A stretch of 25,422 bases of DNA from a virus (taxonomy: Duplodnaviria; Heunggongvirae; Uroviricota; Caudoviricetes). Where the stretch lies: IMG/VR virus record IMGVR_UViG_2574180238_000002, one strand, 5' to 3'. The notes beneath the pieces were generated by a model, which saw only the letters and a list, made by a program, of their open reading frames with translations, was not told the DNA's origin and did no database searches. Made by a program: the position numbers and the translations under genes. Positions 4,247 to 25,011 of this stretch are shown piece by piece. The stretch's first letter is position 1. Each line of letters starts with the position of its first letter.

Positions 4247-4540
4247 TCAGTCATTACTGATAGCGCCATAGCGTGAGCGGTAATTACGCAGGCGCGGGTC
4301 AATTTCAGGGAAGTGGGTATATGTGGCTTTGCGGAATGGTCGGATTGATGTCTGGTAAATTCGCTCGCGTTCTTCTTTCTCTGCGAGCCATATACAATGG
4401 CGAAATTCCTTTTCCTCTTTCGTTTCCTGCGGTAGCGACATTATCCGGTCGTAGTTTTTTCTGAATTTATCCAGCACCTCCGATACGGAATTGCCGGAAC
4501 AGCGGCGCGGGTCATCCGCACTATACAGAGGCGCTGGCAT
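4247..4540 (-). CDS. hypothetical protein (uncertain)
   Basis: 97-aa ORF, charged composition, no clear SD; sits at the presumed deletion junction just upstream of the gp20-like gene. Confidence 0.3.
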   Translation of the reverse strand: MPAPLYSADDPRRCSGNSVSEVLDKFRKNYDRIMSLPQETKEEKEFRHCIWLAEKEERERIYQTSIRPFRKATYTHFPEIDPRLRNYRSRYGAISND

Positions 4541-4586
4541 TGGTGCTGGTATCGGATTGCTTGGCTCGTTGTTTTAAGGGGTAATC

Positions 4587-5993
4587 ATGGCTACTTGGCA
4601 AGGAACAAACGGCGGATTGTTGGCTGGTATCGGCGGCGTCAACTCAAACGCTCCGAGCGTAAATGACATCGGCAATACGCTTCAGCTTATCAGGCAGAAC
4701 AATGATATTGAGCGTTCAGGCGCTAACAATGTTGGACTGACGGCCTTGCAAGGTCTTTCAGGTATTGCGGGTGTTTTTCAGCAGGAAAAGCAGGCTCAGC
4801 GGCAGAAAGAATTTCAGCAGGCATACGCTAATGCTTATGCGTCTGGTGATCGCGGTGCTTTGCGTCAGTTGGCTACTCAATATCCAGACCAGATTGAATC
4901 CGTTCGTAAAGGCATGGGATTCATTGATGAAGACCAGCGTAATTCTATCGGTACATTAGCGGCTGGGGGGGGGGGTGGGGCATCGTCTCCAGAAGCAATG
5001 CAATCATGGCTGCAAAATAACGCCAAGGAACTGACTCGCGTCGGTGTTGACCCTAATAACGTTGCTCAGATGTATCAGCAGAATCCTTCAGGATTTGGTG
5101 AGTTTGTTGATCACCTTGGAATGGCTGCTCTTGGTCCGATTGATTACTTCAATGTTCAGGACAAGATGGCTGGTCGTGAGATTGATCGCGGAAAACTTGC
5201 AGAGACAATCCGCAGCAATCAGGCTGGTGAAGCACTTCAGGCGAGAGGGCAAAACCTTTCCTATCAGTCAGCAATGACTGGGCACAATATCGCAGCACAA
5301 CGCTTGGCCCTGGATCAGCAAGAGTTCGGGTTTAAGATGCAGCAAGCGCAGGAAAAGGCTCAGCAGTTGATTAGCGAAGCACCTAAGCTGTCAGTAAACA
5401 TGGAAAAAGGCATCGAGACGGCTGTAAACAATGCCACAGCATCATCAAACTCAGCCAATTCCATGAGTGCGCTTGCTCAACAGTTCAGAGCAGAAAAACC
5501 AACGACAGGTTTGTTCGGTAACGCACAGAACATGTTCGCAAAACTTACCGGAAGCGATACGACATTGCGTGATTTGCGCATTCGCCAAAATGCCCTTGTT
5601 AACAGTCAGGTTCTTAAATTCCTACCTCCCGGCCCAGCAACGGATAAAGACGTTGAGATCGTTCGACAGGGTGCGCCAACTGACATGGATAACCCTGAGA
5701 CGGTCGCAAGATGGCTTGATGCAATGGCAAACCTTGAGCGACGAAACGCGCAGTTTAATGAGTTTAAAGCTGAGTGGATGAGCGCGAATGGCAACCCTGG
5801 ACAATCGCGTAATGGCGGTCAGATATTGGGGTTGGATGTTAAAAAAGGTGAATCATTGGGGAGTGCCGTTAAGCGGTATATGTCATTGAATACTGACGCA
5901 GCGCCAGCACAAGATTCGATACCTTCAGGAGAACCACGGAATCAGGTTGGATCATATACCTCAAAATCAGGCATTCAATTTACGGTGGAATGA
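4587..5993 (+). CDS. P22 gp20-like ejection (DNA transfer) protein
   Basis: 468 aa with AAGGGG RBS. Size and position (before a ~610-aa protein, followed by an Mnt-like gene and tailspike) match the gp20-gp16 pair of P22-like phages. Assigned by synteny and size, not sequence recall. Confidence 0.7.
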
Positions 5994-7837
5994 TGAAAGT
6001 AACTGCAAACGGTAAGACATTTACCTTCCCTGATGGTACGAGCACGGAAGATATTGGATCTGCCATTGATGAGTATTTTGCTGGACAGTCTGTTCAGCAA
6101 CAAACTGTCAGCCAGGATAGCAATGAACCAGCACGTGAAGAACCATCATTGATGCAACAAGCTGGCGATTGGCTCACTGGTGGTCAAAGTGCAGGGCAAA
6201 TTGCTGAACAGGCTGGTCGTGGTCTGGTAAACATACCATTTGACGTATTGCAGGGTGGTGCAAGTCTGATTAATGCAATCAGCCAGGGGCTTGGTGGCCC
6301 AAAGGTTTTGGATGATGTTTATCGTCCAGTAGATCGACCAACAGACCCTTATGCGCAAGCTGGAGAAACAATTGGCGGGTATTTAGTTCCAGGAGCTGGA
6401 ACGGCAGGAAGCATGGCTATTGGATCACTGGCAGAGGCCGCAAATCAGAAAGGCGATTTCGCACAAAATGCAGCCAAAAATGCCGGAGTTAACCTTGCCG
6501 CTCAGGGTGTTCTTTCCGCAGCAGCAAAGGGAATAGAGCGTGGAATAACGGCTATAAAAGGTGATATTGCGCCAGAAGTGGCGAAGAAAATTGCCACATC
6601 AGAATCGATGGGCGTGACACCAATGACATCTGATGTTATCCCGCCGAAAAATGCTTTCACTCGTGGCCTTACTCAGGATGCCGAGGGTGCTTTGCTCGGG
6701 ACAGGCTCAAAGCGAGCGGAGCAATATGCAACGCGTAGTAAACTGGTAAGCAATTATTTTGACCGTTTTGGTGAGTATAACCCTGATGATGTGGTGAAAT
6801 CTCTGACCACCACGTTAAGGGGGAGGAAGGATGCCGCTGGCGCTGTTATCAATGACGTCACCAATAAAATGGGTAATGCCGCAGTTGATACCACAAATAC
6901 CATGAATGCTCTGAATACAGCGATCGCAAGACAGGAACGGCTTGGGACGTCTGCCAATCAAAGCCTGCTTACATCCTTGCGTAACCTACGTGAAGAATTA
7001 GCAAACCCTGCAACTGATTTGGATGTTACGTTTGATCTCTTGCGTCAGCACAGAACAGCATTTAGATCTAATGTTCAGGGAGATGCTATGGTCTTCCCCA
7101 ACCAGGCAAAAGCAGCTACCAATATGGTAGAGAATGCAATGTCAAAAGACCTTCGTAACGCAGTTGCTAAAAACCTCGGTGCATCAGACGCAGCAAAATA
7201 CCTTAAAGCAAATTCCGATTATGCAAACGTTTATAATAAGGTGCTTAATAAAAACATTGCTAACAAGCTCAACAAGGCAAGCAGTGAAGCCAGTCCTGAA
7301 CTTATAAATACCGTTGTATTAAGCAGAAAACCATCTGACGTGAAACGAATCTGGAGCGCACTGGATGATAAAGGGAAAGATGCTATGCGTGCAGCTTACG
7401 TCAGCAAAATAGCGGAAAAGGCCGGTGACTCTCCAGCCAAGTTCATCACTGAAGTTAATAAGCTGAAATCTCAGTCAGGCGGTGAAATTTACAACACTAT
7501 TTTTTCTGGAAAGCACATGAAAGAGCTTGATGCTCTTCATGAAGTTCTACAGCAAACAGCAAGGTCAGACACCGCAAATGTAGTAACTCAGACGGGGCAA
7601 TCGCAAGCCAACAGGATAAGGACGATTGGCGCAACTGCGACCCTTGGCGTATCAATGGGGCTTGAGGCTGGTTTTGGTGCAATGATGCGCTTGTATGAGT
7701 CCAAAGCAGCAAGGAATGCTCTCTTACGCCTGGCAAACACTAAAACTGGAACGCCAGCTTATGAAAGAGCGCTAAATAATGCTGCAAATGCGATACGCCC
7801 TATACTTTCAAGCCAAATTACAGCAGAACAGCAATAA
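5990..7837 (+). CDS. P22 gp16-like ejection (DNA transfer) protein
   Basis: 615 aa; ATGA overlap with the upstream gene; size matches P22 gp16 (~609 aa); synteny with mnt-like gene and tailspike. Confidence 0.7.
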
Positions 7838-7851
7838 AAGATAAGATATAA

Positions 7852-8337
7852 CTACCTGATATTACTGCTACTGTTGCATGTTACCGTGTTTCCAAATCCT
7901 GAATTGCAGTTTGTATATGTGTCAACGCGTGTTGGGTAAGGTTGAGTTATAACAGGCTGGCGCGCTTTTTGCTCGATCGCTTGCATTGTGTTTACAGCCT
8001 GATAATTCAATAAAGCCTGCTGGAATGCTTGGCTTTGCGCTATTTGTTGGGCTTGCTCTTGGCTTTGTAATTGAACATAAAGATTTTGAAGCTCAAGTCT
8101 TGCCTGTGCGTCACTTATCTTACCTTCATCAACACCTTGCCCGAGCATCTTTGCGGCAAGGACATACAGCTTAGGTGTTGGTGCAGACGCCATGCGTGAG
8201 TCGTTCTTCACACTGGCATCAAGGCAATTAGCCATATCGCTAAGCTTTTGATAGCGTTGTTCGCAACTTGCTTGATAGTCACTTACTTTTGCGCATCCAA
8301 CCAGAAGAAGCGGGATAATTAACAGTGATTTTTTCAT
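7852..8337 (-). CDS. lipoprotein in the sieA-equivalent position
   Basis: ATG at 8337 with AAGGAG RBS; MKKSLLIIPLLLVGC is a signal peptide with lipobox; Gln-rich C-terminal half. Confidence 0.6.
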   Translation of the reverse strand: MKKSLLIIPLLLVGCAKVSDYQASCEQRYQKLSDMANCLDASVKNDSRMASAPTPKLYVLAAKMLGQGVDEGKISDAQARLELQNLYVQLQSQEQAQQIAQSQAFQQALLNYQAVNTMQAIEQKARQPVITQPYPTRVDTYTNCNSGFGNTVTCNSSSNIR

Positions 8338-8407
8338 ATGGTTAACTCTCCTTAGTTTTTCACAGGATATCATGAAGGCAATGCCATTTTAGCCGGAAAC
8401 TAGATTT

Positions 8408-8674
8408 CTATGTTTCCTTTTTATTATTGCTATACATGGTCTTAAGCGTTTCAAAAACCATTTTCTTAACCATATCAGATTGTTGTTCTGCCATACGCTC
8501 TGCATCGTCAATGTAAACTGATGCAGAGCTTTGTTTAGCCAATGATTCTTCAATCGCTGCAATTATCTCTGAGTTCAGCGACCTGTTATTCATCTTCGCG
8601 CGCTGTTTAATTTTCGCGTGGAGTTCATGCGGAAGTCTCAAGTGAAACTGCGCCTCGTCGTATTTGCTGTACAT
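8408..8674 (-). CDS. mnt: Mnt-like ribbon-helix-helix repressor
   Basis: 88 aa from ATG at 8674; aligns by eye with remembered P22 Mnt (..NGRS.NSE...DAER.A..QS..VKKMVF.TLK..Y). Confidence 0.7.
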   Translation of the reverse strand: MYSKYDEAQFHLRLPHELHAKIKQRAKMNNRSLNSEIIAAIEESLAKQSSASVYIDDAERMAEQQSDMVKKMVFETLKTMYSNNKKET

Positions 8675-8795
8675 CCTTGATGCCTCACCAGTTGGGTGGA
8701 ATGGCATCGTAACCTACTGGATAAATACTCAATAGTACCATTTCTGTATGCAATCACATCATGGTTGCATCATATCATTCGTCTGGAGCAATGAA

Positions 8796-10613
8796 ATGTC
8801 AGATATCACCGCAAATGTTGTGGTAAGCATGCCTTCTCAACTCTTCACTATGGCTCGTTCTTTTAAAGCTGTAGCCAATGGCAAAATTTATATCGGTAAA
8901 ATTGACACTGACCCGGTAAATCCTGAAAACCAGATTCAGGTTTATGTGGAGAACGAAGACGGCTCTCACGTTCCTGTATCGCAGCCAATCATCATTAACG
9001 CTGCCGGATATCCTGTATATAACGGACAGATTGCCAAATTCGTAACTGTGCAAGGCCATTCTATGGCTGTTTATGATGCATATGGGGCGCAGCAGTTCTA
9101 TTTTCCTAATGCGTTGAAGTGTTCCCCTGACCAGGGAATTATCAGGTTAAAAGAAGAAATTGCGAAAGATGATGGAGAGAAATATATCGGAATATGCCCT
9201 GACGTTTCTACACTCAGAACAATTGAGCCATCATTCGTCGGGCAAAATATAACTGTTCGTGGATACTACTCTGACACACCCGGGCTTGGGGGAGGAACGT
9301 TTATAGCCTTTTCCAGTTCTGAAGCTGACGATGGTGTGAATATTTTTGTTACCCCTGGCGGTAAGCGATGGAAGAGAGCAGGAAGCCACATCGATATTCC
9401 GGTAGAGAACGGTGGCATGATGACATCATGTACGGCTGAGCAAAACAGTGAAGCCTTTGAACGCCTGACTGCATGCCTTCCATATGAAGGAGGTACGCTC
9501 AGACTCAATGGATTTTACGGTATTAAGTATGGCGCTATCGTGCCTCCACGTGTCACGCTGGAGGGGTGCGGTATGGATTCCTGTGGATTAATTAAAACAG
9601 GTAACGATATTAAAACCGTTCCGGATCGCATGTGGCAGGGTGTACCACACAGCTTCTCCAAAGACTTTATTGTTGCGGTAGATATGGATAGTGACACATC
9701 AGGTGATTTAAGCGGGACACAAACAAGAAGCACCAGAATAATTGGATTGAGTATTCTAAATACTGCGCCCAATCCTTGTGATTACGGGATATATAGCGCT
9801 ATCAGTTACAATGTGCGCCTTCAGGACCTGTATATTCATAGGGTGAAAACCGGTTATCGCACTAGTGATAGTTGGTTGCAGACATGGGAAAACATTACTA
9901 TTCAGGATGTCGTTACTGGAGTTAAAATCGAAGCAGGTGGAACCACATATAATTTAAACAATATTTATGTGAAAACATGTTCAGGTGTTGCATATGATTT
10001 TAATAACATTACATATAGCAGCCTGACTTGTTTGGCTGCTGACTTCGTTAATGGTACTGGCTATAAATTTAAAGATTGTACTGGAGTGAATCTATCTGGA
10101 TGCGGAAGCGAAGAAGGCACTGGTAAAATATTTGATATAAATGGTAGTCGAATTAACGTAACTGCATTTAGAGGGGTTAATCATCATGATGGAGGAGTTG
10201 AAGCTGTATCTCTGGAATCGTGTTTCATCTCATTGGTTTCATCTCATTTTTCTAGTTACTCTGGAGTCTCATCTAGCAAATACATATATCTTAATAATGC
10301 AACTGCAAATTTTAATGGTACGGTAATTCCCGACAACACCACTGATTCTATTAGATGGGGTAGTGCGCAGAGCAGGATCAACAAGGTTGATTCAGGCGGC
10401 ACCTATAGTATAACCGGAAACTCATCATGGACTGCATTATGCAGACTTGAGTCAGGATATATAACGGTTCTATCAGTATCACCACCCACGGGAGATACAA
10501 CTAATTTCCCGTTTGGCACCAAGTGGGAATTGCTTGGTCAGGTTTATACCGGACCGTGGAAGTGGACATACGTATCAACTGGTGAATGGAAGGTATCCGC
10601 AACTACCACGTAA
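8796..10613 (+). CDS. tailspike with P22-type head-binding N-terminus and divergent receptor-binding domain
   Basis: [11 protein letters not shown]...[35 protein letters not shown]...[11 protein letters not shown] matches the remembered P22 gp9 N-terminal ~110 aa; the rest does not resemble P22 gp9. GGAG RBS. Confidence 0.85.
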
Positions 10614-10641: not shown

Positions 10642-11685
10642 CTAATATCTGAATTTGTTTGATATCTTTTTCCCAATATCCATTGCTGGTTTTTCTATCG
10701 CAATAAATGATATCAGTCCAGCAATAAGTGATAGTGCTATGCATAAAACTTGATTTAAGTACAGGTTTATATCAGGTAATAACCTGAATGTTATCTGCTG
10801 TATTAAAAAGCCCCACAAGTAAACGCCATATGACACATCATGTTTTATTCTTACTGATTTTATTATTTTTGTTGTTGATAAATACACGAAAAATGTACAT
10901 GCGCAAAAGTAAAAAAGCATATGCTTGAGTGTTGGGTCTGACACAAAATTATATAATATTGCAAATCCTATTGGTGCATGTGGTGAAATGTATATTTTGT
11001 CCTTGTTTATAGCATACAATGCGCCAAGAGCAAAGCATGGAGCCATTAAAAACACATCTGCATTATCGTTATTTATAAAAATTAATTTGTTCCATCCCAA
11101 TACTGGAAGCGCTATTATTGATAAGCATATGATGCTAGGTATTATTCTTCCTCTGCTCTGAGTTATCATGTAGCATGCTAGGAGCACGACATAAGATGCA
11201 ACTTCATATGGTATTGTCCATAAGGAACCATTAACTGATCTTTTATATATATTTTCCTCAAAAACACCAGGAAGAAAAAATTGCATATCCAAATATGAGC
11301 TTTTAAATAGATAGCTGTACGTCAGTGTATCTTTTAAATAAGATGTCATTGAGTGCGTTGTAAGTAATGGTCCAACAATGAATGTCGCGAATAATAAAAC
11401 AAAAATGAATGCGGGGAATATTCTAAAAAATCTAGATGAAATAAAGTGTGGTATGTTGCGCGTTGTTAATAAACTATTAGTTACAAGCATTCCACTAATA
11501 AAGAAAAATATTTTTACAGCAATGGAACCAGTATATGTAAATGTGAAAACAGACTGAACCGGCTCCTGGGCTCCATCAGAATTTGCAAGATAATATGAAT
11601 GGGCAAATATTACAGAAATTGCACAAAAAATACGTATTAAGTCAAGGTTATTGTTATCCCTTTTTAGCGCATCTTTGACCAACAT
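10642..11685 (-). CDS. integral-membrane acyltransferase family 3 protein (O-antigen acetyltransferase-like)
   Basis: 347 aa from first ATG; multiple hydrophobic segments; N-terminal motif ...LDLIRIFCAISVIFAHS typical of acyltransferase-3/Oac-type enzymes; visibly AT-rich; sits where P22-like phages carry O-antigen conversion genes. Confidence 0.7.
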   Translation of the reverse strand: MLVKDALKRDNNNLDLIRIFCAISVIFAHSYYLANSDGAQEPVQSVFTFTYTGSIAVKIFFFISGMLVTNSLLTTRNIPHFISSRFFRIFPAFIFVLLFATFIVGPLLTTHSMTSYLKDTLTYSYLFKSSYLDMQFFLPGVFEENIYKRSVNGSLWTIPYEVASYVVLLACYMITQSRGRIIPSIICLSIIALPVLGWNKLIFINNDNADVFLMAPCFALGALYAINKDKIYISPHAPIGFAILYNFVSDPTLKHMLFYFCACTFFVYLSTTKIIKSVRIKHDVSYGVYLWGFLIQQITFRLLPDINLYLNQVLCIALSLIAGLISFIAIEKPAMDIGKKISNKFRY

Positions 11686-12075
11686 AAAAATCACCTAACT
11701 GTTTATTTTGAAGAGCATTGTATCATCAGATAGCCGCACTTTCACTCCCATCAGATCACCGTCAGAAATTATCATAAGCGCCAGTTCATCATGTGCAATT
11801 GCGTGCAAACAAAATATTCACTGCAGAGAGATTAAGTAGATTGATTCTACTGGGTTGGCATGAGACAAAACTGAGACACAGAAAGCTTTGCACTGGATTG
11901 CAAGGCTTTGTGCTCTCCTGTGGATGTGTGTCTACATGTTTGAAGATTGTTGTGCCGTATTTGTGACATACGCATGACAACATCATGCATCAACTTTCTG
12001 TTTGTGCCATCAACTATAGCTTAGTGAATGCGGTTAATGCTTGCTAAAACAGATAGTTATGATTGGTGCTACAGA

Positions 12076-12121
12076 TTCGTAATGCGAAGGTCGTAGGTTC
12101 GACTCCTATTATCGGCACCAT
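12076..12121 (+). other. partial tRNA-Thr 3' segment (anticodon loop to CCA): central att site of the tandem array
   Basis: ATTCGTAATGCGAAGGTCGTAGGTTCGACTCCTATTATCGGCACCA matches the 3' 46 nt of tRNA-Thr(CGU) as remembered; upstream bases do not form the tRNA 5' half, so this is not an intact gene. Confidence 0.7.
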
Positions 12122-12726
12122 CAAGAAAATCAATAACTTAGCTTAACTTCTCTAAGAAATTGTATCTTCTGTTATCACTTACAAACGCCTATACGTTGTT
12201 ATGGGCTTTGGTAGTGTAACACGTATGGGCGAGTAGTTCCCAGGCTCAACCTCGTAACAAGTTCCTTTGAAGCTGGAAGACGTGCCACCGTCTCTAAACC
12301 TTCTACCAAAACTCTTAGCAAGATGTTCCACACCTGGCGCGGTGTCCAATGATGCTACACGTCGTGAGACGTTGCAGAGGATAAACAGGCTAAATGATGG
12401 GAAGAGTTTTAAGTGCAATAGTGGATCAAAGCCCACCTCTTCAAAACCTAACTTGATCGGGAAAGAATCAAGCTCTAGCACGGTTTCGTCCACCGGAGTA
12501 CAACGGGTGCCTGATAAGAGAAGAACTGCTAAGACTTCATAGCTTTTGTGAAAAAGCCCTTTTTAGTGGATACGCCTACGGCGCTTATTTTTTGGTATAA
12601 CCATCAAAGGCGCTTTATGGCTCCTATTGTCTTGAAAATGTATCTTTACTTGTATTGTGTTTTATGCGTAGTCTCCCTGTGTAGTATGTAACTTGTTAAT
12701 TTTCATATGAATACAGAGGCAACACG

Positions 12727-12879
12727 ATGAAAAACATTGCAGCTATAAAACGTAATAACCGCAAGATTCACGCTCGTAAGTTCCTGTCTACGCCAGAAGG
12801 AAAAGCCTGGCTAGAGCGTAAACAGAGAGAGAACGAAGAAAGAAAACTCCTTAGTGAGTTGAAATGGCTTAAGGATTGA
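12727..12879 (+). CDS. small basic protein (50 aa), uncertain
   Basis: MKNIAAIKRNNRKIHARKFLSTPEGKAWLERKQRENEERKLLSELKWLKD; not in the ORF track (below its length cutoff); followed by a long hairpin. Confidence 0.3.
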   Translation: MKNIAAIKRNNRKIHARKFLSTPEGKAWLERKQRENEERKLLSELKWLKD

Positions 12880-13429
12880 ATCACCAGTAGGCGCATAACA
12901 CATCCAGCGATCAAAGATGTGTTTATGCGCCTGATAGTGAAATTATTAAAGTTTTTTAGTTAATGTAGCCATTGCATGAACGATGATCGCTAGTGAATCG
13001 ATTTTATCTCGAGGGGTAAAATAGATGAGGTATATGATGGTAACAATTACAGCTAAAGTAATTGTGGTTCTGCAGGTTTTTAAAATGGATAAGATAAAGC
13101 GCATAGATACCCCCTATTGATTTAACAACAATAAGGTATCATTTATTTTTTATTGCATGCAATGTGCAAATTTTCACATATAATAGCTTACTATTCACTT
13201 TGCATGGTGTCAACAAGATGATGTGTTGTTTTGTTTGATTTGTTCAAGATAATATTTCATTTTCTCATCTATATAACTTGTGTTTTAGATAATTTCACTA
13301 ATTGTAAAAGTTACGTATTGCTTAATAGCTGCCTTTTTATCTGAAATCGGCGCAAACGTGATCAATGTTTAACGCGAAGATCAGCGGCGTCAGGTCCACG
13401 CAGCGACAATTCTCAAATATCAGGAGGCA

Positions 13430-13981
13430 TTACGCTTCCTGCTCTTTCTTGATACGTTGCACCGTCTGTGTGCTGACACTGAAATCTTTTGCTACGCTCC
13501 GAATTGATCCACCATTCGCGAGAGCGGCAACAATTCCCGCTCGATCAATTGCTTTTCCATTACCACGTTTTGCTATACGTCCAGCGGCCTTAGCTGCGGC
13601 GATCCCCTCACGTTGCCGCTCAAGCATCATTTCACGTTCCATTTGTGCCACTGCTGCAAGCACTGTGAGCATCATATTCCCTGCGGGAGAGTTCTTCCCT
13701 GTCTTAAAGTCTTCTTTATGGAAATGCACAGACACGCCGCGCTCTGTTAATTGCTCAACCGTTGCCAGAAGGTCGGCTGTATTACGGCAAAGGCGATCAA
13801 TACTGTGAACATGCACAACATCACCTTCCCGCACATAGTTCATCATTGCCTCAAACTGTGGGCGCTGAGTGTTCTTGCCTGACGCTTTATCTTCAAAGAC
13901 TTTATCAAGAGTTACTCCAGCTAATTGACGGTCTGTGTTTTGTTGCACAGTCGATACCCTAATGTATCCAATATTAGCCAT
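13430..13981 (-). CDS. serine recombinase (resolvase/invertase family)
   Basis: MANIGYIRVSTVQQ... with the catalytic Ser context, DRL.R motif and C-terminal HTH (GGSIRSVAKDFSVSTQTVQRIKK); ~183 aa, typical of small resolvases/invertases; RBS 9 nt upstream of ATG at 13981. Confidence 0.8.
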   Translation of the reverse strand: MANIGYIRVSTVQQNTDRQLAGVTLDKVFEDKASGKNTQRPQFEAMMNYVREGDVVHVHSIDRLCRNTADLLATVEQLTERGVSVHFHKEDFKTGKNSPAGNMMLTVLAAVAQMEREMMLERQREGIAAAKAAGRIAKRGNGKAIDRAGIVAALANGGSIRSVAKDFSVSTQTVQRIKKEQEA

Positions 13982-14507
13982 TTTCATTTTCCTTCTGTGT
14001 TGATTTGTGTGTAGTGATTATTGATCGTGTTGATTAGGTGTGTAAAGGACTTTTTTCACTACGAAATTCGAAGGTTTTTAGTGTGGTGATTTAGCCTGCT
14101 TTATCACTACACGTCTTGCATGAGAATCATGTAGTTACATTTTGGTAAAATTAGCAAGCTATTAAATAGTGTGTTTATTTTGAAAAAATAATTTTTTGTT
14201 GCATTAAAGGAAACTTGTTCGACAAATAATAGATTGATTTTTAATCAACAATTTCTGATAGTGCTCTGTAAGCCGTATTACACAAGGCTTTGCGAAAGTG
14301 ATGTAAAAGTGAAGAAAGCTAACATTGCACTTTTTAAGCTACTTTTCATTGGATTTTTACGTAGGAATTACACAGGGATTAATCATCAATTACATTGAAT
14401 TTAAGCCTGTTTTAGATGTTTAATTTTGGTAGCAAGAAACACTTTTAGAAGATCATTGCACAGATGTTATGTGATAAATGGATGTAACGGTAGGTCACTG
14501 TGAACTA

Positions 14508-14644
14508 CCCCCACAGAATTCTGTTATCCTTAACTTTTAAAGAAATATGCACCCTAACAGAAAACTGTTACCCCAACCCTAACAGAATTATGTTAGATAC
14601 CCCCACAGAAAACTGTTAGCCACCCCTACAGAATTTTGTTACCT
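14508..14644. repeat. array of five ~23-bp iterons, each a TAACAG-N4-CTGTTA palindrome preceded by a C-run
   Basis: Cores at 14513-14526, 14557-14570, 14582-14595, 14605-14618, 14628-14641; four of the five start 23 bp apart. Confidence 0.65.
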
Positions 14645-14756
14645 ATTAGATCAACTATCAAACTACAATTAAATTATCTTTTATAAATTCTTTTATCTTT
14701 AAAGAATAATTAAGTGATACCCGTTAGGGAGTCTTCGACTATCCCTTAATCTATTG

Positions 14757-15033
14757 GCATTCGCCAGAACCTTGCACAAGTTAGAGTGTTAGTCGTTAGA
14801 CTGCTTGTCATAACACATAGTTTTTGTTTGTTGATGTTAGTTAGTAGATCTATGTTCGCTAATGCCGCTCACAACGAATATGTAATCTACTATGTGCAAA
14901 TAGCCTACGGCTTGCGTAAGGCTAAATAGTCTATGCGCTGTGCGCTTCAATAGTTCCATTGATGAGGCTTACGCCAATCTAACGATCATCAATCATCTAA
15001 AATAAATTTCTTGTGCAATGTTCTGGCGAATGC
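14757..15033. repeat. 24-bp inverted-repeat pair flanking a 229-bp segment
   Basis: gcattcgccagaaccttgcacaag (14757-14780) versus reverse complement of cttgtgcaatgttctggcgaatgc (15010-15033): 23/24 identity. Confidence 0.55.
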
Positions 15034-15339
15034 AATTAGAGTAGCGTTACCCCTTTGGGGATGCTAACGCATAACTATAGATCAACCATCAAACAGACAA
15101 AAAAGAAAAATATGGTTTAAAGATGTTAGGTAGTAGATGAGATTCTACCGCTTAAATCAAGCCGTAGGCGAGCTAAACAGCCTCTACATAAGGGAATGTA
15201 TTGTATTTATCAAAACCTCGTCAGAGGGCGTTTTAGAGCGTTTTAGAGAATAAGGAAGAATAGGAGCACTCTTAAGAGCACGAATTGCTAAGAAAAATTA
15301 TAACACACTGAAAATGATCAATATTTTTATGGCTAGGGG

Positions 15340-15368
15340 TTGACAAAAGCTTTTAGTCGTGGTAAAGT
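15340..15368 (+). promoter_or_regulatory. candidate sigma70 promoter for the 15492-17800 operon
   Basis: TTGACA (15340-15345), 17-bp spacer, TAAAGT (15363-15368). Confidence 0.4.
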
Positions 15369-15491
15369 AATATTAGGGACAGAAAACATTCTTATCCTCT
15401 AAGTAATTAAACCAATGCACCGCACTTTGAAGCCCAACAAGGCTTGCAAGGTGTTTTTTCTTTTAACCAAATAGAATAAGGAGGCTAATTA

Positions 15492-15668
15492 ATGAAATAT
15501 TTTACTCCACAGGATGTAGTTGAAGCCTGGAAACGTGGTGAGATTAATCGTTTTAAAGTAAGGATGAACAGGAACACAGCGCGACGCTGTGGTTATCCAG
15601 AGCGTGAAAAATGCTTTGACGATGCACTAAAAATTATTGATGAACTGCGTAAGGCAGAGAAAGAATAA
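15492..15668 (+). CDS. small protein (58 aa), unknown function
   Basis: Strong SD AAGGAGG upstream of ATG; MKYFTPQDVVEAWKRGEINRFKV...; first gene of a co-directional operon. Confidence 0.5.
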   Translation: MKYFTPQDVVEAWKRGEINRFKVRMNRNTARRCGYPEREKCFDDALKIIDELRKAEKE

Positions 15669-15689
15669 TAACAGGAGAAGGAGAAAACT

Positions 15690-15860
15690 ATGAGCGAAAC
15701 TACAGAAAAGAAAAGACAACCACGCACTTGCTTTCATATTCCTGATGAAGTATTTCAGGTGTTGTTTAAAGAAGCCAGAAGTAAACGTATCACTGTTACA
15801 GATTACATTCTTGATATGTTGAAAAGAGAGGCTGAAACACTCTCAAACAAAAGCAAGTGA
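15690..15860 (+). CDS. small ribbon-helix-helix-like DNA-binding protein (56 aa)
   Basis: SD AGGAGAAGGAG; sequence RTCFHIPDEVFQVLFKEARSKRITVTDYILDMLKRE fits a beta-strand then two helices as in CopG/Arc/ParG-type RHH proteins (by-eye secondary-structure pattern). Confidence 0.5.
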   Translation: MSETTEKKRQPRTCFHIPDEVFQVLFKEARSKRITVTDYILDMLKREAETLSNKSK

Positions 15861-15913
15861 TTTTTATCACCATAGTAGCGCCGTAGAGCGTGATTACATC
15901 AAGGAGATTTTTA

Positions 15914-16483
15914 ATGATTAATGAAGAACAATTTGTAAAAGTTCCTATGTGGATTCTAAAAATAAGCCAAGTAAACGGACATAAATTTACAGATAGTGCT
16001 AAAAACCTTTACTGCTATCTGAGAGGGTTTGATCGTGCATTTCCCTCTTACGCTAAGATAGGCGATGTTTTTGGCATAACACCAAGAGCAGCAGAAGAAA
16101 GGGTTAAGAAATTGCTCGAAATGGGATTAATTATAAAAGATGCACGACCAGGAAGCTCTAACCTTTATCGAGTGCTTGATATTCCAAAAGGAGAATCATC
16201 ACTACCTGATCCTTCTGAGAAAGAAGACGAATCTAATGAAATATTGAATGTTTCCGAAATCATCGTTGAAGAAGAAACACAAGAGCCAGAGTTCCCTGAG
16301 CGGCCCGAAATTTTTACTTGGCTTCTTTCCCTTGATAAGAAGAAACCACCGCACGAAGAAACAGAAGATTTTGTAAAACGAGCATTAGATTCAAAGAATA
16401 TCTATCTTTGTGAAAATGATTTTGACTCTTTGATAATTGATCTCAAAAGTGAGAGCACAATATATGATTCACTACCCTTCTAA
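15914..16483 (+). CDS. predicted winged-helix DNA-binding protein with acidic C-terminal tail
   Basis: ATG at 15914 with AAGGAG RBS; N-terminal ~90 aa has a wHTH-like pattern (..AKIGDVFGITPRAAEERVKKLLEMGLI..); C-terminal half highly acidic. Confidence 0.55.
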   Translation: MINEEQFVKVPMWILKISQVNGHKFTDSAKNLYCYLRGFDRAFPSYAKIGDVFGITPRAAEERVKKLLEMGLIIKDARPGSSNLYRVLDIPKGESSLPDPSEKEDESNEILNVSEIIVEEETQEPEFPERPEIFTWLLSLDKKKPPHEETEDFVKRALDSKNIYLCENDFDSLIIDLKSESTIYDSLPF

Positions 16484-16492
16484 GGAGAATAA

Positions 16493-16750
16493 ATGACTTA
16501 TAACATCACTATAGGAAACAAAACTATTGAAATAACTGAAAGCGGATACAACATTTTAAAAGCTATTTTGGACATAGAGTTTTCACCACCGACAGTGGTT
16601 AGCTTTTGTAGTTTAGGCGGCTACAGCGCACAACACGTAAATCATTTTACATCGTTCGGTGTGCTGGATTATGAAGGGATTAACAGCACTACATTTCGTC
16701 TTTTGAAATTAAACAAAGATTTTGAATTGTTTCTCACAAACAATCAATAA
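16493..16750 (+). CDS. hypothetical protein (85 aa)
   Basis: AAGGAG RBS; same-strand operon context. Confidence 0.5.
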   Translation: MTYNITIGNKTIEITESGYNILKAILDIEFSPPTVVSFCSLGGYSAQHVNHFTSFGVLDYEGINSTTFRLLKLNKDFELFLTNNQ

Positions 16751-16847
16751 CAACAGATCGGGCAATACATATGGCAAATGCATTTATGGCGATATTCATC
16801 GTAACAATGGCGTCCAGTTTTTATAATCCACATAAAAAGAGGGAAAA

Positions 16848-17231
16848 ATGGGAAGAAAGAAAAAGAACAACTTAAAACGTATTGAAAAAAACAGTAATTT
16901 CAATTCAAAAAGACAACGTCCACCGACACACACCAATAACGAAATTCCAGGGGAAGAGATAATCTTTATTCTTGAAACAGAATCCCCTGAATTAAGTGAT
17001 GAAGAATTAGAAATAATCCAATCAATGCCAGGCGTTTACTTTCGCCCAAGAACAAGAAAACAAACTATCATTTCTGATGGCACTCTGAAACGTTGGCAGC
17101 TTTTAGGGTTTAGCTCCTATCATCATTTTTTGGGATTTAACGCTTTCAATAATTGTGTAGGTGGTGCATCGGAAGTCGATCTGATGGCTCATTTAGAAGA
17201 TACATTAGCTTCTAACAAACGTTCTAACTAA
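16848..17231 (+). CDS. hypothetical protein with basic N-terminus and acidic middle (127 aa)
   Basis: RBS AGAGGG; N-terminal Lys/Arg-rich stretch followed by an acidic segment. Confidence 0.5.
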   Translation: MGRKKKNNLKRIEKNSNFNSKRQRPPTHTNNEIPGEEIIFILETESPELSDEELEIIQSMPGVYFRPRTRKQTIISDGTLKRWQLLGFSSYHHFLGFNAFNNCVGGASEVDLMAHLEDTLASNKRSN

Positions 17232-17246
17232 TAAAATGATGGGTGT

Positions 17247-17492
17247 ATGTATAAGCGCCCAATGAAAATATTCAAAAAAGGAAAAATAATGATTGGCTAT
17301 ATTCAAGAAACACAATTATTTCAGATGATCCTGTCTGATGCAAAAAACTATGCAGAGTTAATTCGGCTGGCAAAAGAAACAGAAGACTACGAAGCATTAG
17401 AGCGTTACCGTGATGAAGTGCTGACGCTCAAGACACCTTTTAACATCGTATTGAATATGATTAATGATGCATTACAAGGAGAATACGCATAA
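17247..17492 (+). CDS. hypothetical protein (81 aa; alternative start at 17289)
   Basis: ORF with better RBS (AAGGA) before the internal Met at 17289; stop overlaps the next start (ATAATG). Confidence 0.45.
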   Translation: MYKRPMKIFKKGKIMIGYIQETQLFQMILSDAKNYAELIRLAKETEDYEALERYRDEVLTLKTPFNIVLNMINDALQGEYA

Positions 17493-17800
17493 TGGAAGAA
17501 GATATTAGCAATGCAATGGAACAACTTTTAGAACTGACTATCTCACTACAAACAAGAATAAATCAAGCCTATTCAGATTTATGCGATTACACGCTCTCTC
17601 AATGCGTTATTAGCTTAATGAAGGTGAATGTAAGCCTTGACGATTTTATCTCTCTTGGGAGCGATTTAGAGCTATCAGAGGACGATGCAAAACAGTGTAA
17701 TCAAATCATCACAGACATCGCCACCACGTTAAAGGTTGCAAGTGAAGAGATTCAGCAATTAGTAGATGATTTAGCAAAAAGTGCTATTTTCTCTAAATGA
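17492..17800 (+). CDS. strongly acidic small protein (102 aa)
   Basis: AAGGAG RBS; about 19 Asp/Glu versus about 6 Lys/Arg by count. Confidence 0.5.
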   Translation: MEEDISNAMEQLLELTISLQTRINQAYSDLCDYTLSQCVISLMKVNVSLDDFISLGSDLELSEDDAKQCNQIITDIATTLKVASEEIQQLVDDLAKSAIFSK

Positions 17801-18642
17801 TAATGAAAATTATTTGCATTTATAATGATTTTGTTATATAATAATTTTAGGGGTAGATAAAAAGATTTTAGTTGGTGTTAATCCTTCTACTGTCATAAAT
17901 CCCTGCATATGGAAGGTGATAGCCTCAAAGGTTGAGTGGCATTAACCTCTAACAAATATTACCTTCCATCTCTCAAGAAGTTTTAGAATAATCATAACTC
18001 CCTCTTTGATTGTTGATTGTTTCTACGTTGTGTTGATGAATGTTGTTAGGCATTGTGCTTAATTTTGATAAAAGCGGGTAGGTGTTATCTCCTTGCCCTT
18101 CCCGCTCTTATTTTTCATCTATGCTTATCCTAAAGCTCCTTATTTTGTCAGAAAACATTAAAGAGCCTTACACTGATAGTTATATTTTATAACTATTTAC
18201 TAACATCATTAAACTATTATTTAATGACAGAAGTTAGTAACAGAATAATCTATTAAGTTGTTGTCAAAAACAATCATCTGCATAGCGTTAGCCGCAAGCA
18301 GAGAGAGTTTAGCTAAGAATGGTGCAATAAACTTTGGAAATATTGATAGCAAAACGGGTTTTATAGAATGCGGATCTATAAGCTTTGGTTGTAAAAACGA
18401 TTTTCTGAAACGGTAGATTACTGTTGGTGTAGTTAATCATTATTAAAAATTTAATCTGTGAGTAGATTGGAATAGTGATTCCTTAAAATCTGACTGGTGC
18501 ATCCACACCATGAAAGATAGCGGTTGGCCACCGCGCCCCGAATAGATATTCCTGATTGATTCCGCATGTTTTCCTAAGAGCATGTTTTCAGGAGTATCTA
18601 TTCACCCTTTAAGCATATCATCAAGTATATTTAAAAAGTGTA

Positions 18643-18671
18643 TTTGCTGATATGTTTAATCCTCTTATAGT
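18643..18671 (+). promoter_or_regulatory. candidate sigma70 promoter for the 18785-23366 operon
   Basis: TTTGCT (18643-18648), 17-bp spacer, TATAGT (18666-18671); weak -35, good -10. Confidence 0.3.
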
Positions 18672-18784
18672 TTAACTTATCAATTATGTAATTGCCCGCA
18701 CGTTAAAGCCCCTTTGCTGGTCAGAATTAACCTCTTACGGCATTGGGGCTTTTTATTTGTCTGGCACTAACAGGAACATTATTT

Positions 18785-18982
18785 ATGAAACAAGAAATGA
18801 TTATCAGCAAAGACGGGGAAACGATGATTGTTAGTGATGAAAACCTCATTAAGGTTGCCGCACTGTTGGGAGTTACTCCCGAAAGTCTTCGTTCTACCAC
18901 TGCTCAATTATTTAAATCGGCTGATGCGGTTAGTCTTGCTGATGCCCTTAAATCTAAAATTAAACAACTGAAAGGAAAATAA
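18785..18982 (+). CDS. hypothetical protein (65 aa)
   Basis: AGGA RBS before ATG at 18785; first gene of the second operon. Confidence 0.45.
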   Translation: MKQEMIISKDGETMIVSDENLIKVAALLGVTPESLRSTTAQLFKSADAVSLADALKSKIKQLKGK

Positions 18983-18986
18983 TCTT

Positions 18987-19370
18987 ATGGCTAACCCATA
19001 TGGAAAATTAAAAGCAGTGAATGCGGATAACTCCCGTTCACGCTGTAAGGTAGTAGCTTACGCTGCTGATCCAGTGCTGCAAGATCGCCTCGTCAAACTG
19101 GCTTCACCTCTCACTGACGATCTTATTGTCGGGGCTTTGCTGAAAGCCGATGGCACCAAAGCAACAACCGCATCTGATATTGCTCACGTAGTAGTTGAAC
19201 CGGCTTATGAAGGACAGGAAAGCGTAGTGGTTGCACATCCTACTTTCGTTATTCTGGCTGAAGATGGGATTGAATTTAACAGCATGGAAAAGGCAAGTGT
19301 TATTGCAAAACTGCAATCTCTCGGCTTTGTAATTGCTGGTTATGAAGAACTTGCGATCCCTACGACTTAA
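18987..19370 (+). CDS. hypothetical protein (127 aa)
   Basis: AAGGA RBS; tightly spaced with neighbours (4-14 nt intergenic). Confidence 0.55.
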   Translation: MANPYGKLKAVNADNSRSRCKVVAYAADPVLQDRLVKLASPLTDDLIVGALLKADGTKATTASDIAHVVVEPAYEGQESVVVAHPTFVILAEDGIEFNSMEKASVIAKLQSLGFVIAGYEELAIPTT

Positions 19371-19384
19371 CAAGGAAAATAATA

Positions 19385-20416
19385 ATGAATGATTTATCAA
19401 CATATTTTGGCGTTAATACTGCGGTAGTAACTCCATTTGCTTATGAGAATGCACTTAATACCCTGATTACTAATCTCGATCTGTTCGATGTGCAATATCA
19501 TACAGAAAACAGCATTCTTCTTACCGACCTGATTGATCAGTTTGTGCAGGTAGCTGGGGAAACCTCGCCTTACGCTCAAAGCGACTGGAACGCCTCTAAA
19601 CGTCAGGAATGGTCAAACAAACTTTTCCAGATGAAACACGTCGGCAGTATTAACGCTGTTACTTCTCGTGACCTGGAACAATACAGCCGCCAATATCCAA
19701 ACCGTTCTGATGCTATGCTGGTAGCGGTTAATGATTTCTCTGAGGCTCATTACCGTTCACACGCAAACCGTGTTGAAGTGGATCTGATTACCGCGCTGCT
19801 GGGCCTGAAAGTTGAATCTGAATATGCCGGACAAGGTGATCTCGACTTCCTCGACGGTCAGGCTAAAACCACGGTACCCGCTATCGACTTTGCATCGACT
19901 ACTGTTAACCCGTTCCTTGCTATTCGTAAAGCGGTGCGCTTACAGAGTGAAAAGCTGGGGTCTGGTCTTGCTGCAAAGCGAACTGGTGTAATTATCTTTG
20001 CTGCTGGCACTGCTGCTGATGGTTTGTCATCTAACCCGCTGATCAGTGACATGGTGAAATATGCAGGCGATGCGAGTGCTACGGCCCTGTTTACCCGTAT
20101 GGTTGATTCTAACCCAGCCTATGACTCTTTCCAGATTGGTGGGATCACTGTTATTGATGTGTCAATGTTTCCTGAGATTGTTGCTCACATCGGAGAGAAC
20201 GGTTTCGCAATTGTTCCGGTAATGGATAAAGCGGCACAGTGTTACCAGCTTCATAGCGGCGTTGGTGTGCGTCATGCTGAGTTAGGTCAAGATGCCGTGT
20301 TGCATCACCAATATCTAATCAAGGATGAATTCCAATTCCCATCTGTGGTTACTGAGACATCTTATCTGCCAGTAAACAACATTCCGCAAGCTATCATCTT
20401 CGGATCTGCTGCGTAA
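19385..20416 (+). CDS. hypothetical protein (343 aa), function unknown
   Basis: AAGGA RBS; no signal peptide or recognisable catalytic motif by eye. Confidence 0.55.
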   Translation: MNDLSTYFGVNTAVVTPFAYENALNTLITNLDLFDVQYHTENSILLTDLIDQFVQVAGETSPYAQSDWNASKRQEWSNKLFQMKHVGSINAVTSRDLEQYSRQYPNRSDAMLVAVNDFSEAHYRSHANRVEVDLITALLGLKVESEYAGQGDLDFLDGQAKTTVPAIDFASTTVNPFLAIRKAVRLQSEKLGSGLAAKRTGVIIFAAGTAADGLSSNPLISDMVKYAGDASATALFTRMVDSNPAYDSFQIGGITVIDVSMFPEIVAHIGENGFAIVPVMDKAAQCYQLHSGVGVRHAELGQDAVLHHQYLIKDEFQFPSVVTETSYLPVNNIPQAIIFGSAA

Positions 20417-20567
20417 TAAAGCGTTAATAGACGATTCCCCATCGGGGCAATAAGGGTAAAGGGATTAACTAACCTGTAGGCGCAAATACAGTAACGAATC
20501 TCTTTGCCCTTTTTGTTTTTCTACTGTCTACAAACCCAAATAAAAATATATATGTGAGAGAAAACCA

Positions 20568-20765
20568 ATGAATACAGAAAACCCACAATCCTTTATTCTT
20601 AAAGCTGTAAAAGAACTGGCAGCTATTAGCGAGGAATCAGTTATAAACACATCGGCGCTTTGCCGCCTTTTAGAAATTGATGCAAATAATGTGCGCCAGC
20701 GTGTCTTTCAGACTGGGTGCAGCACTTTCGAAGCAATTCAATACTATTGCTCTAAAAAACAATAA
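20568..20765 (+). CDS. hypothetical small protein (65 aa)
   Basis: ORF in operon context; weak RBS. Confidence 0.4.
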   Translation: MNTENPQSFILKAVKELAAISEESVINTSALCRLLEIDANNVRQRVFQTGCSTFEAIQYYCSKKQ

Positions 20766-20799
20766 TAAACAACAATCATAATACAGGGAAACAATTAGC

Positions 20800-22641
20800 A
20801 TGTTAGAACTTAACGTCAGCCGCTTATCAAACGTTGTCACCTTCCAGGTTGATCGACCATCATTAGAGAAAGCAAAAGCAGAAGTAGAAAAACTTCGTAA
20901 ACAAATGGCGGCGGTGAAAGATATAGAATTGCGTGTTAAGACACATAAACAATCAACTTCTAAAGCAAAAAAAGACGTAGACGATATTGCTAAAAAGCAA
21001 GCACAGGCAGATAAAGCCAATGCTAAAGCACAATTAGCCGCTCAACGTGTAGTTGCAAGAGAACAAAAAGCCCTGGCAGCACGCAAAGAGAAGGCAGACT
21101 TAAAACTGTTAGACGTTGGATCAAGCATTAGTGCATTGCACCGCCTTTCTGTAGCGGAACAATATAAAGCTATTGCACAGGCTAGAGAAATTGCCCTCCA
21201 ATATGAAAGAGGAGCTATTAGTCTGGCACGTATGAATAGCCAAATGAAACGCCTACAACAGCAACAACGTAAGATTAATGGCAATCGTAACGCTCACGCT
21301 AAAGCCTATGCACCTGTTAAGGGTAGCGGGAGTATTGGCGGCGGTGCTGCGGCTGTTATGCTGGGTGGCTTAGGCGCTGGCGCTACGTATATGGCTATGA
21401 GCAAAGCCTCTGAATTTGTTACTAACAGCTTTGCGAATGCTGAAACGCTGGGTGAATTGTATAGCCGTGCGAAGCTGGGCGGTGTAGACGTTAACCAGAT
21501 GAACAATATTGAGCAATGGGCCTACAAAAACGGCGTTGATTCAATGATGGGGGATCAAGGTAAACGTAAGTATCTCGATCAGATGAAAGATGTGCGTGAG
21601 CGTGCAACCAAAAGCTATGATGAGGCTGAATATGTAGTCGATAAAAAAACAGGCAAAGGTGAATGGAAGGGCGGCGATAGCGGCATCAATACTTTAATGA
21701 ATGAAGGATTCTTAACTAAAAAGGATCTAAAAGACTTTGCTGATAATCCGGCTGGTCTGGTTAGTAAAGCAGTTCAGGGAATGGTGAAGAAAGGCTATTC
21801 AGATGCACAAATCGGTAGTCGTCTGGAAGATCTGGCTGATGATTTGATGCTCACCTCTAAATACTGGACACGCTCCGCTAAAGAAGTGGAACAATCAGCA
21901 CGAGAACAACTAGAATCAGGGCGCTGGGTAACACAGGCACAACAGGAAAGCGTTATTAAATTCCGTGAACTGAATAATGCACTTAGTGGGCTTTCTGACT
22001 CACAAGGGATCGCCTTTGTTGATGGCTTTATGAAATCTCTTGATCCGAAAGTGATTGAAGAGTTTAAAAAGAGCATGGTTGCAATGCTGCCAATGTTTAC
22101 CAAATTAGGCGAGGCTATCGGCGGATTGGTTAACGCCGTAATGAAAACAATCAACTGGCTGATGAAAAACGACGAGAAGACGGAAGCTATTCAGAAGAAT
22201 TTAGGGGATGCACCGCCACTATCTAACGAAGGAATGAAGCAGAATCTTTCTAATCTCACTCCTGATCAATATAAAGGCGCTGGCACCGGAACAACTAAGC
22301 CAGATAACAGCAATTCCCTGGTTAACACTATTAAAAGCTGGTTTATGCCAGAAGAAACGGTAGGTGGGGCGCAGGCTGTAAATCAATACAGTCTCGAAGG
22401 ACAAAACATTGCAAATCTGAAACAGAGTGCAGCACAACAAGCTTTCAAGGCTCCTTCTTACACCTTTGCACCTGTTATTAACTTCAATCCAGAATTACAA
22501 GTAAATGCAGAAGTGCCGCTAACTATCGAATCAGACACCGGACGATTGAGCGAATTTATCGACTTCAAATCAAAGGCATCCTCCGCTGAGTTTAGCAAGC
22601 TATTAACGCTGGGTGTTATGTCAGGCGGGTCAACCTATTAA
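20800..22641 (+). CDS. large coiled-coil protein with Gly-rich hydrophobic segment (613 aa)
   Basis: AGGGA RBS; N-terminal ~170 aa Lys/Ala/Gln-rich heptad-like sequence; GSGSIGGGAAAVMLGGLGAGATYMAM resembles a glycine-zipper membrane segment. Confidence 0.6.
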   Translation: MLELNVSRLSNVVTFQVDRPSLEKAKAEVEKLRKQMAAVKDIELRVKTHKQSTSKAKKDVDDIAKKQAQADKANAKAQLAAQRVVAREQKALAARKEKADLKLLDVGSSISALHRLSVAEQYKAIAQAREIALQYERGAISLARMNSQMKRLQQQQRKINGNRNAHAKAYAPVKGSGSIGGGAAAVMLGGLGAGATYMAMSKASEFVTNSFANAETLGELYSRAKLGGVDVNQMNNIEQWAYKNGVDSMMGDQGKRKYLDQMKDVRERATKSYDEAEYVVDKKTGKGEWKGGDSGINTLMNEGFLTKKDLKDFADNPAGLVSKAVQGMVKKGYSDAQIGSRLEDLADDLMLTSKYWTRSAKEVEQSAREQLESGRWVTQAQQESVIKFRELNNALSGLSDSQGIAFVDGFMKSLDPKVIEEFKKSMVAMLPMFTKLGEAIGGLVNAVMKTINWLMKNDEKTEAIQKNLGDAPPLSNEGMKQNLSNLTPDQYKGAGTGTTKPDNSNSLVNTIKSWFMPEETVGGAQAVNQYSLEGQNIANLKQSAAQQAFKAPSYTFAPVINFNPELQVNAEVPLTIESDTGRLSEFIDFKSKASSAEFSKLLTLGVMSGGSTY

Positions 22642-22688
22642 TCATCACTGTGGGGCTGTTTAGCCCCCTTAAATAAGGATTACAAATT

Positions 22689-23366: not shown

Positions 23367-23446
23367 CCTTAAACGCCTATGAAACGCTCTGTAACGAGAT
23401 AATCATAAAAGAGGCATCAGCCTATATTGAAGCCTCTTTATTACGT

Positions 23447-24724: not shown

Positions 24725-24823
24725 AAAATCTCCGGCTAAAGTGTCGGAGCGTTTGTAATGTGAAAATTGATTGTGACGCATAGAAAATGATGATTTTTCT
24801 ATAAGATTCAATCAATTAGTAAT

Positions 24824-24885
24824 GGTCGTAGGTGATGGCATTAACACGAGATTAATCGAGTGTTTTACTCCTATTATCGGCACCA
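24824..24885 (+). other. degenerate pseudo-tRNA / right att of the second element
   Basis: 19-nt exact match to the tRNA-Thr 3' end (ACTCCTATTATCGGCACCA, 24867-24885), plus an upstream 10-nt tRNA-like piece (GGTCGTAGGT, 24824-24833) separated by non-tRNA sequence. Confidence 0.6.
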
Positions 24886-25011
24886 TTAAAATCAAAGAGT
24901 TACCCCATATTTAAATACACCACGTTTCCTCCTGTGCCGTATTTGTGCCATTGTAACCTTGGCAATTCATCAAAATACTGTTCTGACATCAGGCAGTGCA
25001 GGTGCAGACAT

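Follow-up and report, generated by a model that had tools for sequence, protein, structure and literature searches.

A predicted lipoprotein at the sieA position of P22-like prophages, a candidate for envelope-level phage exclusion

SieA of phage P22, encoded at the locus between gp16 and the tailspike, blocks DNA injection (PMC10883804). It is a multi-pass inner-membrane protein of a group with three types (A–C) and an FxRYPxEAxxFNK motif (PMC10883804). Since sieA occurs in only 22 of 66 P22-like phages, other occupants of its slot are to be expected; the lipoprotein described below is absent from the text of that study (PMC10883804). Lipoproteins have also been linked to exclusion elsewhere. 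Ltp of the Streptococcus phage TP-J34 is an exclusion lipoprotein that binds the tape measure protein and blocks DNA injection (cited in PMC10883804), and T5 Llp and T1/phi80 Cor are mentioned as lytic-conversion lipoproteins (PMC11990801).

The annotated P22 record has the order 16(+), sieA(−), orf59a(−), mnt(−), arc(+), ant(+), 9(+), confirming the starting point of the original prediction, namely that the gp16–tailspike interval of P22 holds sieA and the immI genes. We compared this arrangement with that of a P22-like prophage of E. coli, contained in a stretch of 25,422 nucleotides referred to here as the window. The order in the corresponding region is gp20(+), gp16(+), a minus-strand lipoprotein ORF, a minus-strand Mnt-like ORF, tailspike(+), and acyltransferase(−) (Table 1). 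The gp16 of the window is 74% identical to that of P22, and its gene is convergent with the lipoprotein gene, 14 nt away. In P22, a gap of 22 nt separates gene 16 from sieA, which codes for 164 aa and has the same orientation as the lipoprotein gene with its 161 aa. In the tailspike, the head-binding domain is the only part common to relatives, and similarity to related prophages stops at 9110. Together with the acyltransferase, it looks like a serotype-specific receptor and O-antigen-modification module.

Table 1. Features of the window around the gp16–tailspike slot
Feature	Position	Strand	Remarks
IS1	1 to ~700		truncates integrase
Integrase, truncated	709–1485	−	
abc2	4247–4540	−	abuts gp20 (4587, +)
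gp20	4587–5993	+	
gp16, ejection protein	5990–7837	+	slot flank; phrog_770 DNA transfer protein, E 1e-279
Lipoprotein ORF, longest form	7852–8373	−	
Lipoprotein gene, functional start	7852–8337	−	161 aa; full-length match to phrog_6067
Leader and Shine-Dalgarno sequence, common to P22 sieA	8348–8376	−	TTCATGATATCCTGTGAAAAACTAAGGAG; P22, TTCATGGTATCCTGCACAAAACTAAGGAG
mnt–lipoprotein spacer	8338–8407	−	70 nt; terminator-free
mnt, ribbon-helix-helix repressor	8408–8674	−	88 aa; Pfam Arc and Repressor_Mnt
mnt–tailspike control region	8675–8795		single Mnt operator half-site ATAGTACCA at 8732–8740
Tailspike	8796–10613	+	slot flank; Pfam Head_binding, 8e-65; P22-type head-binding domain, then divergent receptor-binding domain
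Acyltransferase (Acyl_transf_3, O-acetyltransferase-like)	10642–11694	−	3' of tailspike

The prophage in the window is a defective, internal-deletion remnant. Its truncated integrase gene is followed by xis-like, DUF551, and Ea22-type early-left genes, and it has lost gp7 together with the entire set of head, lysis, immunity, and replication genes. Similarity to intact prophages begins only at ~4530–4558, and the junction of abc2 and gp20 is found in no complete E. coli genome of the collection. Outside the P22-like element, positions 12075–25000 form a separate island that is ~98% identical in many E. coli genomes and carries annotations for an integrase, a recombinase, a 'phage baseplate protein', a LexA-family regulator, a flotillin, and a tRNA-Thr.

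Occupancy of the sieA position

The claim that the lipoprotein sits in the slot used by P22 for superinfection exclusion was borne out, for position as well as orientation, in every informative relative in a search of other P22-like genomes. In all 88 lipoprotein-bearing loci with scorable flanks, the gene is located in the gp16–tailspike slot, with the order tailspike, (ant/arc), mnt, (orf59a or an ORF similar to Sf6 gene 15), lipoprotein, gp16, gp20. Relatives with 25–60% identity, from Tatumella, Providencia, Serratia, and metagenomes, occupy the same slot.

At the lipoprotein-bearing loci with scorable flanks, there is no match to P22 SieA (type A, compared by sequence) and no SieA-like multi-TM ORF on the mnt/tailspike side, the feature by whose absence types B and C were judged. 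As a control, P22 SieA itself scored four hydrophobic segments in the hydropathy analysis. The slot is also found empty, as in Sf101. At two loci (L037 and L040), a small ORF of 81 aa (MEQQQGSPLSLIIMVIFFVFIFF...) with a pair of hydrophobic segments follows mnt, directly upstream of the lipoprotein gene; it may represent another small membrane moron in the slot.

The correspondence with sieA extends to the upstream region. At least 16 prophages (e.g., L063, L055, L081, L073, L026, and L070) have ~90 nt upstream of the lipoprotein ATG that are near-identical to the sequence upstream of P22 sieA. This common stretch takes in the annotated promoter of P22 sieA together with its leader and reaches as far as the Shine-Dalgarno sequence AAGGAG, where the similarity is lost. 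Of the sieA leader, the window has just the proximal 29 nt left (8376–8348), the distal promoter part being lost, and upstream of this remnant the mnt stop codon is reached after ~30 nt. As judged from these sequence comparisons, the lipoprotein gene is an allelic replacement of sieA, an alternative cassette, in P22-like phages.

The two proteins share locus, orientation, size (161 and 164 aa), and expression with or next to mnt, and in many relatives also promoter, leader, and Shine-Dalgarno sequence. In contrast, their sequences give no BLASTP alignment at E ≤ 100, and the FxRYPxEAxxFNK motif is absent from the lipoprotein. Whereas SieA has three to four TM helices, the lipoprotein has a soluble helical domain on a lipid anchor and is predicted to be on the outer-membrane side.

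The lipoprotein and its family

The functional start of the lipoprotein gene is the ATG at 8337, with AAGGAG (8353–8348) 10 nt upstream of it; the same start is used by the RefSeq annotators and by all homologues. The gene product had been described as a lipoprotein of 162 aa with a Gln-rich C-terminus. Its nature as a lipoprotein stands, but its length is 161 aa, the stop codon having been counted before. It is also Gln-rich, with 13 Gln in residues 88–125, but this stretch belongs to a long central helix, and the extreme C-terminus is a Cys–Cys β-hairpin.

Residues 1–14 (MKKSLLIIPLLLVG) constitute the signal peptide and are followed by Cys15, the predicted site of lipid modification, in the lipobox LVGC. 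The positively charged n-region, hydrophobic h-region, and lipobox ([LVI][ASTVI][GAS]C) expected of a signal peptidase II substrate are all present, and Cys15 is invariant in the close family. The mature protein has no transmembrane segment (maximum 19-mer hydropathy of 0.47). According to the Lol sorting rule, Asp at position +2 leads to retention in the inner membrane, and other residues direct the protein to the outer membrane. Residue +2 of the window lipoprotein is Ala, and the absence of Asp points to outer-membrane sorting.

An AF2 model based on a deep alignment (pLDDT of 86) predicts helices at residues 18–28, 32–45, and 53–71, a 50-residue helix at 76–125, and a hairpin at 139–159. 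These elements would form a helical bundle (~18–100), from which the Gln-rich helix extends to ~125, and a Cys144–Cys154 hairpin. Four conserved cysteines suggest two disulfides, which would pair Cys25 with Cys38 and Cys144 with Cys154. We infer that the lipid anchor probably lies in the inner leaflet of the outer membrane and that the protein faces the periplasm and is disulfide-bonded.

In the close family, the C-terminal 30 residues occur as two alternative tails, ...VITQPYPTRVDTYTNCNSGFGNTVTCNSSSNIR and ...TYIPPVQLQNNNVTTNCTTYGNQTRCQSY, on the same N-terminal domain, a pattern that suggests module exchange at the putative interaction end. A further E. coli protein of 167 aa, annotated as 'recombinase' (P0093), is a chimeric ORF in which the lipoprotein N-terminus is joined to the C-terminal part of an Erf recombinase (PF04404). 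Its lipoprotein portion comprises ~43 residues from the start of the extended ORF, upstream extension MISCEKLRRVNH included. The chimera is probably a further remnant of internal deletion, by which the slot became fused with the early-left operon.

The lipoprotein matches phrog_6067 over its entire length (E 1.6e-110, residues 1–161 against profile positions 1–161), as do all 40 of the distant homologues tested against this family. Since phrog_6067 is without annotation, membership tells nothing about function. Searches of the lipoprotein against Pfam and NCBIfam gave no usable match; an NCBIfam match to GspK, scoring 19 bits where the cut-off is 130, was rejected as compositional. Ten distant homologues were likewise without a Pfam match, and no family in the PADLOC models of known anti-phage defence proteins was hit at E ≤ 1. 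The sequence profile search of the PDB returned coiled-coil noise only, Foldseek searches of the model against BFVD and PDB gave no match at E < 0.3, and one family alignment (A7) found no match in viral contigs. No paper describing this lipoprotein was found in a full-text literature search.

An exhaustive HMM search defined a superfamily of ~246 representative clusters with one common architecture. A lipobox precedes a helical domain with a YQxxCE...C motif, followed by a conserved core (KLYxLxA...G.ISD..AR.ELQ.LY), a variable linker, and a C-terminal hairpin (TxCxxxGxxxxCxx[Y/R]). A lipobox-like motif is present in 115 of 124 superfamily members, none of these 115 having Asp at +2, and 92 of the 115 contain exactly four further cysteines.

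Some distant members lie outside phage genomes: one is located among the chromosomal genes uvrC/udg/bioADFHC and another near gltX/thiolase, with no conserved synteny. Because these members stand among ordinary chromosomal genes, the superfamily fold is neither phage-exclusive nor intrinsically an anti-phage device. Homology to a housekeeping lipoprotein had been named beforehand as evidence against an exclusion role. Distant homologues do exist in chromosomal contexts, but these copies are not demonstrably housekeeping, since conserved synteny is absent. One homologue is found on a small element composed of an integrase and AAA_25. In Serratia plymuthica (CP012096; L091, 334–4163), a CBASS-like cluster with DUF3892, a SMODS/DncV-like nucleotidyltransferase, E2-CBASS, and a SAVED-2TM effector lies beside the integrase of a P22-like prophage with a distant lipoprotein homologue.

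In comparison with three phage isolates (VSe13, vB_EcoP-720R6, and Gally), the lipoprotein shows 88–93% DNA identity and 96–98% protein identity, with a dN/dS of ~0.03. This low ratio indicates a gene under selection, and on such sequence grounds the lipoprotein gene is real and under purifying selection. The identity of 96–98% holds even in phages with a gp16 that is only 34% identical to the reference (compared to 74%). Among 5426 complete E. coli genomes, 186 (~3%) carry the gene, O26:H11 and O104:H4 included, and always on the chromosome. Relatives are encoded by 128 IMG/VR contigs, and a profile search of genome contigs returned five loci. Clustering at 90% identity gives 94 clusters, from Escherichia, Citrobacter, Cronobacter, Klebsiella, Serratia, Yersinia, Pectobacterium, Morganella, Providencia, and Tatumella.

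Mnt and the expression context

The Mnt-like protein of the window contains an N-terminal Arc domain (PF03869, 1.1e-14) and a C-terminal tetramerisation domain (PF11423, Repressor_Mnt, 3.9e-12), and shares 47% identity over 76 aa with Mnt of P22. Started from a further in-frame ATG upstream, at 8707, the protein would have 99 aa; RefSeq calls the 88-aa form. The distance from mnt to the tailspike start at 8796 is only ~90–120 nt, and tblastn with P22 Arc and Ant reveals neither gene at the window locus. The description of this repressor as an orphan is accurate as to the missing arc and ant, but the arrangement is common and unremarkable. Among relatives, mnt without arc/ant is the commonest arrangement (38 of ~89 related loci), and it is also seen in Sf101 and IME10.

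The Mnt operator palindrome is whole in P22 (ATAGGTCCACGGTGGACCT) and in 720R6/Gally (ATAAGACCACAGTGGTCT). In the window and in VSe13, a 10-nt gap at the second operator half-site leaves ATAGTACCA (8732–8740) alone. We searched positions 8700–8790 for an alternative Mnt operator palindrome and found a weak 9-nt inverted repeat only. The combination of mnt, arc, ant, and paired Mnt/Arc operators that defines P22 immI is not present in the window. Mnt of the window perhaps controls its own operon. A Pant-like promoter remnant in 8700–8795 would read into the tailspike gene.

No terminator-like site was found between mnt and the lipoprotein gene in the window, and the same short spacer recurs in ~40 loci, intact prophages included. 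Among diverged relatives, the two genes are ~17 nt apart in L120 and L121, and in L118 the stop codon of mnt and the start codon of the lipoprotein gene overlap as ATGA, so that the two are translationally coupled. Leader match, spacer, and overlaps thus indicate that the gene is either driven by a sieA-type promoter or read as the second gene of an operon headed by mnt. Both types of signal are lysogenic in P22.

A comparable context exists in an unrelated temperate phage (L104, IMG/VR contig 3300024940_000010), which encodes a 123-aa homologue with a lipobox and four cysteines. Its gene overlaps the end of a CI-type HTH repressor gene by 4 nt, and the repressor gene diverges in turn from a gene of the Cro/YdaS type and from replication genes. 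The cI-repressor operon is a classic place for prophage-expressed exclusion genes.

Candidate roles of the lipoprotein

The exact coincidence of the gene with the P22 sieA position makes a block of incoming phages at the envelope a probable function. We assign a probability of roughly 0.5 to the reading that the lipoprotein is expressed from the prophage and protects the lysogen from incoming phages at the envelope, doing the job of SieA by other means. Expression would occur through the sieA-type or mnt-operon signals, and the protein would be anchored in the inner leaflet of the outer membrane with its domain facing the periplasm. From there it may interfere with the trans-envelope DNA conduit that P22-like phages build from gp7, gp20, and gp16, or with an outer-membrane component that they need. 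The protruding Gln-rich helix and the C-terminal hairpin would be the interacting end. The proposed block, at the receptor or at DNA entry, is suggested by gene context.

Such a mode of action would be similar to that of Ltp, also a prophage-expressed lipoprotein directed against the DNA-delivery machinery and not against adsorption. Ltp differs in its Gram-positive host, its fold, and its siphovirus targets, and has no sequence or fold match to the window lipoprotein. Cor (phi80, N15, HK022, and T1) and Llp (T5) are likewise small phage lipoproteins, encoded at a moron position by host-recognition or DNA-delivery genes, and act in envelope-level exclusion, the role proposed here for the lipoprotein. 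They inactivate the FhuA receptor, and their carriers are FhuA-dependent siphoviruses, whereas the lipoprotein is carried by O-antigen-specific podoviruses and has a different fold, with a helical bundle, a long helix, and a hairpin. No PHROG match to Cor or Llp was obtained for the window lipoprotein; Cor phrog_1119 is weakly matched (E 5.6e-4) by only one of the 40 distant members. A relationship to Cor was rejected after hhalign of the family alignments A2 and A4 against HK022 Cor aligned only residues 1–25, the signal peptide.

Some observations count against an exclusion role: the searches revealed no homology to any characterised exclusion or defence protein, distant superfamily members stand among ordinary chromosomal genes, and the window copy is without the distal sieA promoter. 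In addition, strong purifying selection and near-identity across divergent gp16 proteins are not what a tight arms race with ejection proteins predicts. SieA is likewise indifferent to the type of ejection protein (PMC10883804).

The same selection would fit a host-directed function, and the lipoprotein could be a lysogenic-conversion (moron) product with a benefit unrelated to phage exclusion, such as serum or complement resistance, envelope-stress tolerance, or colonisation. Lambda Bor provides serum or complement resistance. The lysogeny-type expression contexts are compatible with any moron, the gene is found in pathogenic lineages including O26:H11 and O104:H4, and the chromosomal non-phage homologues suggest a general periplasmic role. 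We nevertheless consider this explanation, the main rival, rather unlikely, given that the gene stands, at the same promoter, in place of one with proven exclusion activity, was never found with sieA at the loci examined, and has no similarity to Bor/Iss or another named family. Moreover, its P22-like carriers span at least eight genera of varied lifestyles, including the plant-associated Pectobacterium and Tatumella, which disfavours a host-specific virulence role. Transcription opposite to the late operon, with lysogenic signals of the mnt, cI, and sieA type, speaks against a function in the lytic cycle. Here the lipoprotein would either mask the receptor and prevent the loss of progeny on debris or vesicles, as T5 Llp and T1/phi80 Cor do, or modulate lysis. 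The gene does adjoin virion and ejection genes, but it lies outside the lysis cassette, and the primary receptor is the O-antigen, which a periplasm-facing lipoprotein would be unable to mask. We regard such a function as improbable; a role as spanin or in lysis was rejected on account of wrong location and orientation.

It is very improbable that the window copy is a silent relic of a decaying prophage, despite the internal deletion of gp7 and of the head, lysis, immunity, and replication genes, the missing distal sieA promoter, and the half-deleted Mnt operator. The lipoprotein ORF is uninterrupted and matches that of an intact prophage (strain 2014C-4587, H81) with 100% identity, and the short spacer to mnt is the one that intact prophages also have. 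Furthermore, gp20, gp16, and the tailspike are still intact, which indicates that the deletion is recent.

Beyond the envelope-level exclusion proposed for this locus, we tentatively suggest a wider possibility. The protein may represent a widespread, previously unrecognised family of periplasmic lipoproteins with an outer-membrane anchor, the functional counterpart of SieA. By binding an outer-membrane partner or the ejected gp7/gp20 conduit, its members would halt DNA delivery by podoviruses from the outer-membrane side. Such proteins would have entered the mnt, sieA, and cI operons of unrelated temperate phages through repeated recruitment from a stock of chromosomal lipoproteins.

Should expression of the protein give no exclusion phenotype, the family would be one more conserved moron lipoprotein. 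If exclusion is its role, the locus and promoter of SieA would also serve a protein of unrelated structure that acts from the other membrane, and the function of the ejection proteins could be approached independently through it. Two thirds of P22-like phages are without sieA, and the lipoprotein would account for some of the exclusion 'missing' from such prophages. As ~3% of complete E. coli genomes carry the gene, O26:H11 and O104:H4 among them, such exclusion could affect phage typing, phage therapy, and the acquisition of prophages in these lineages.
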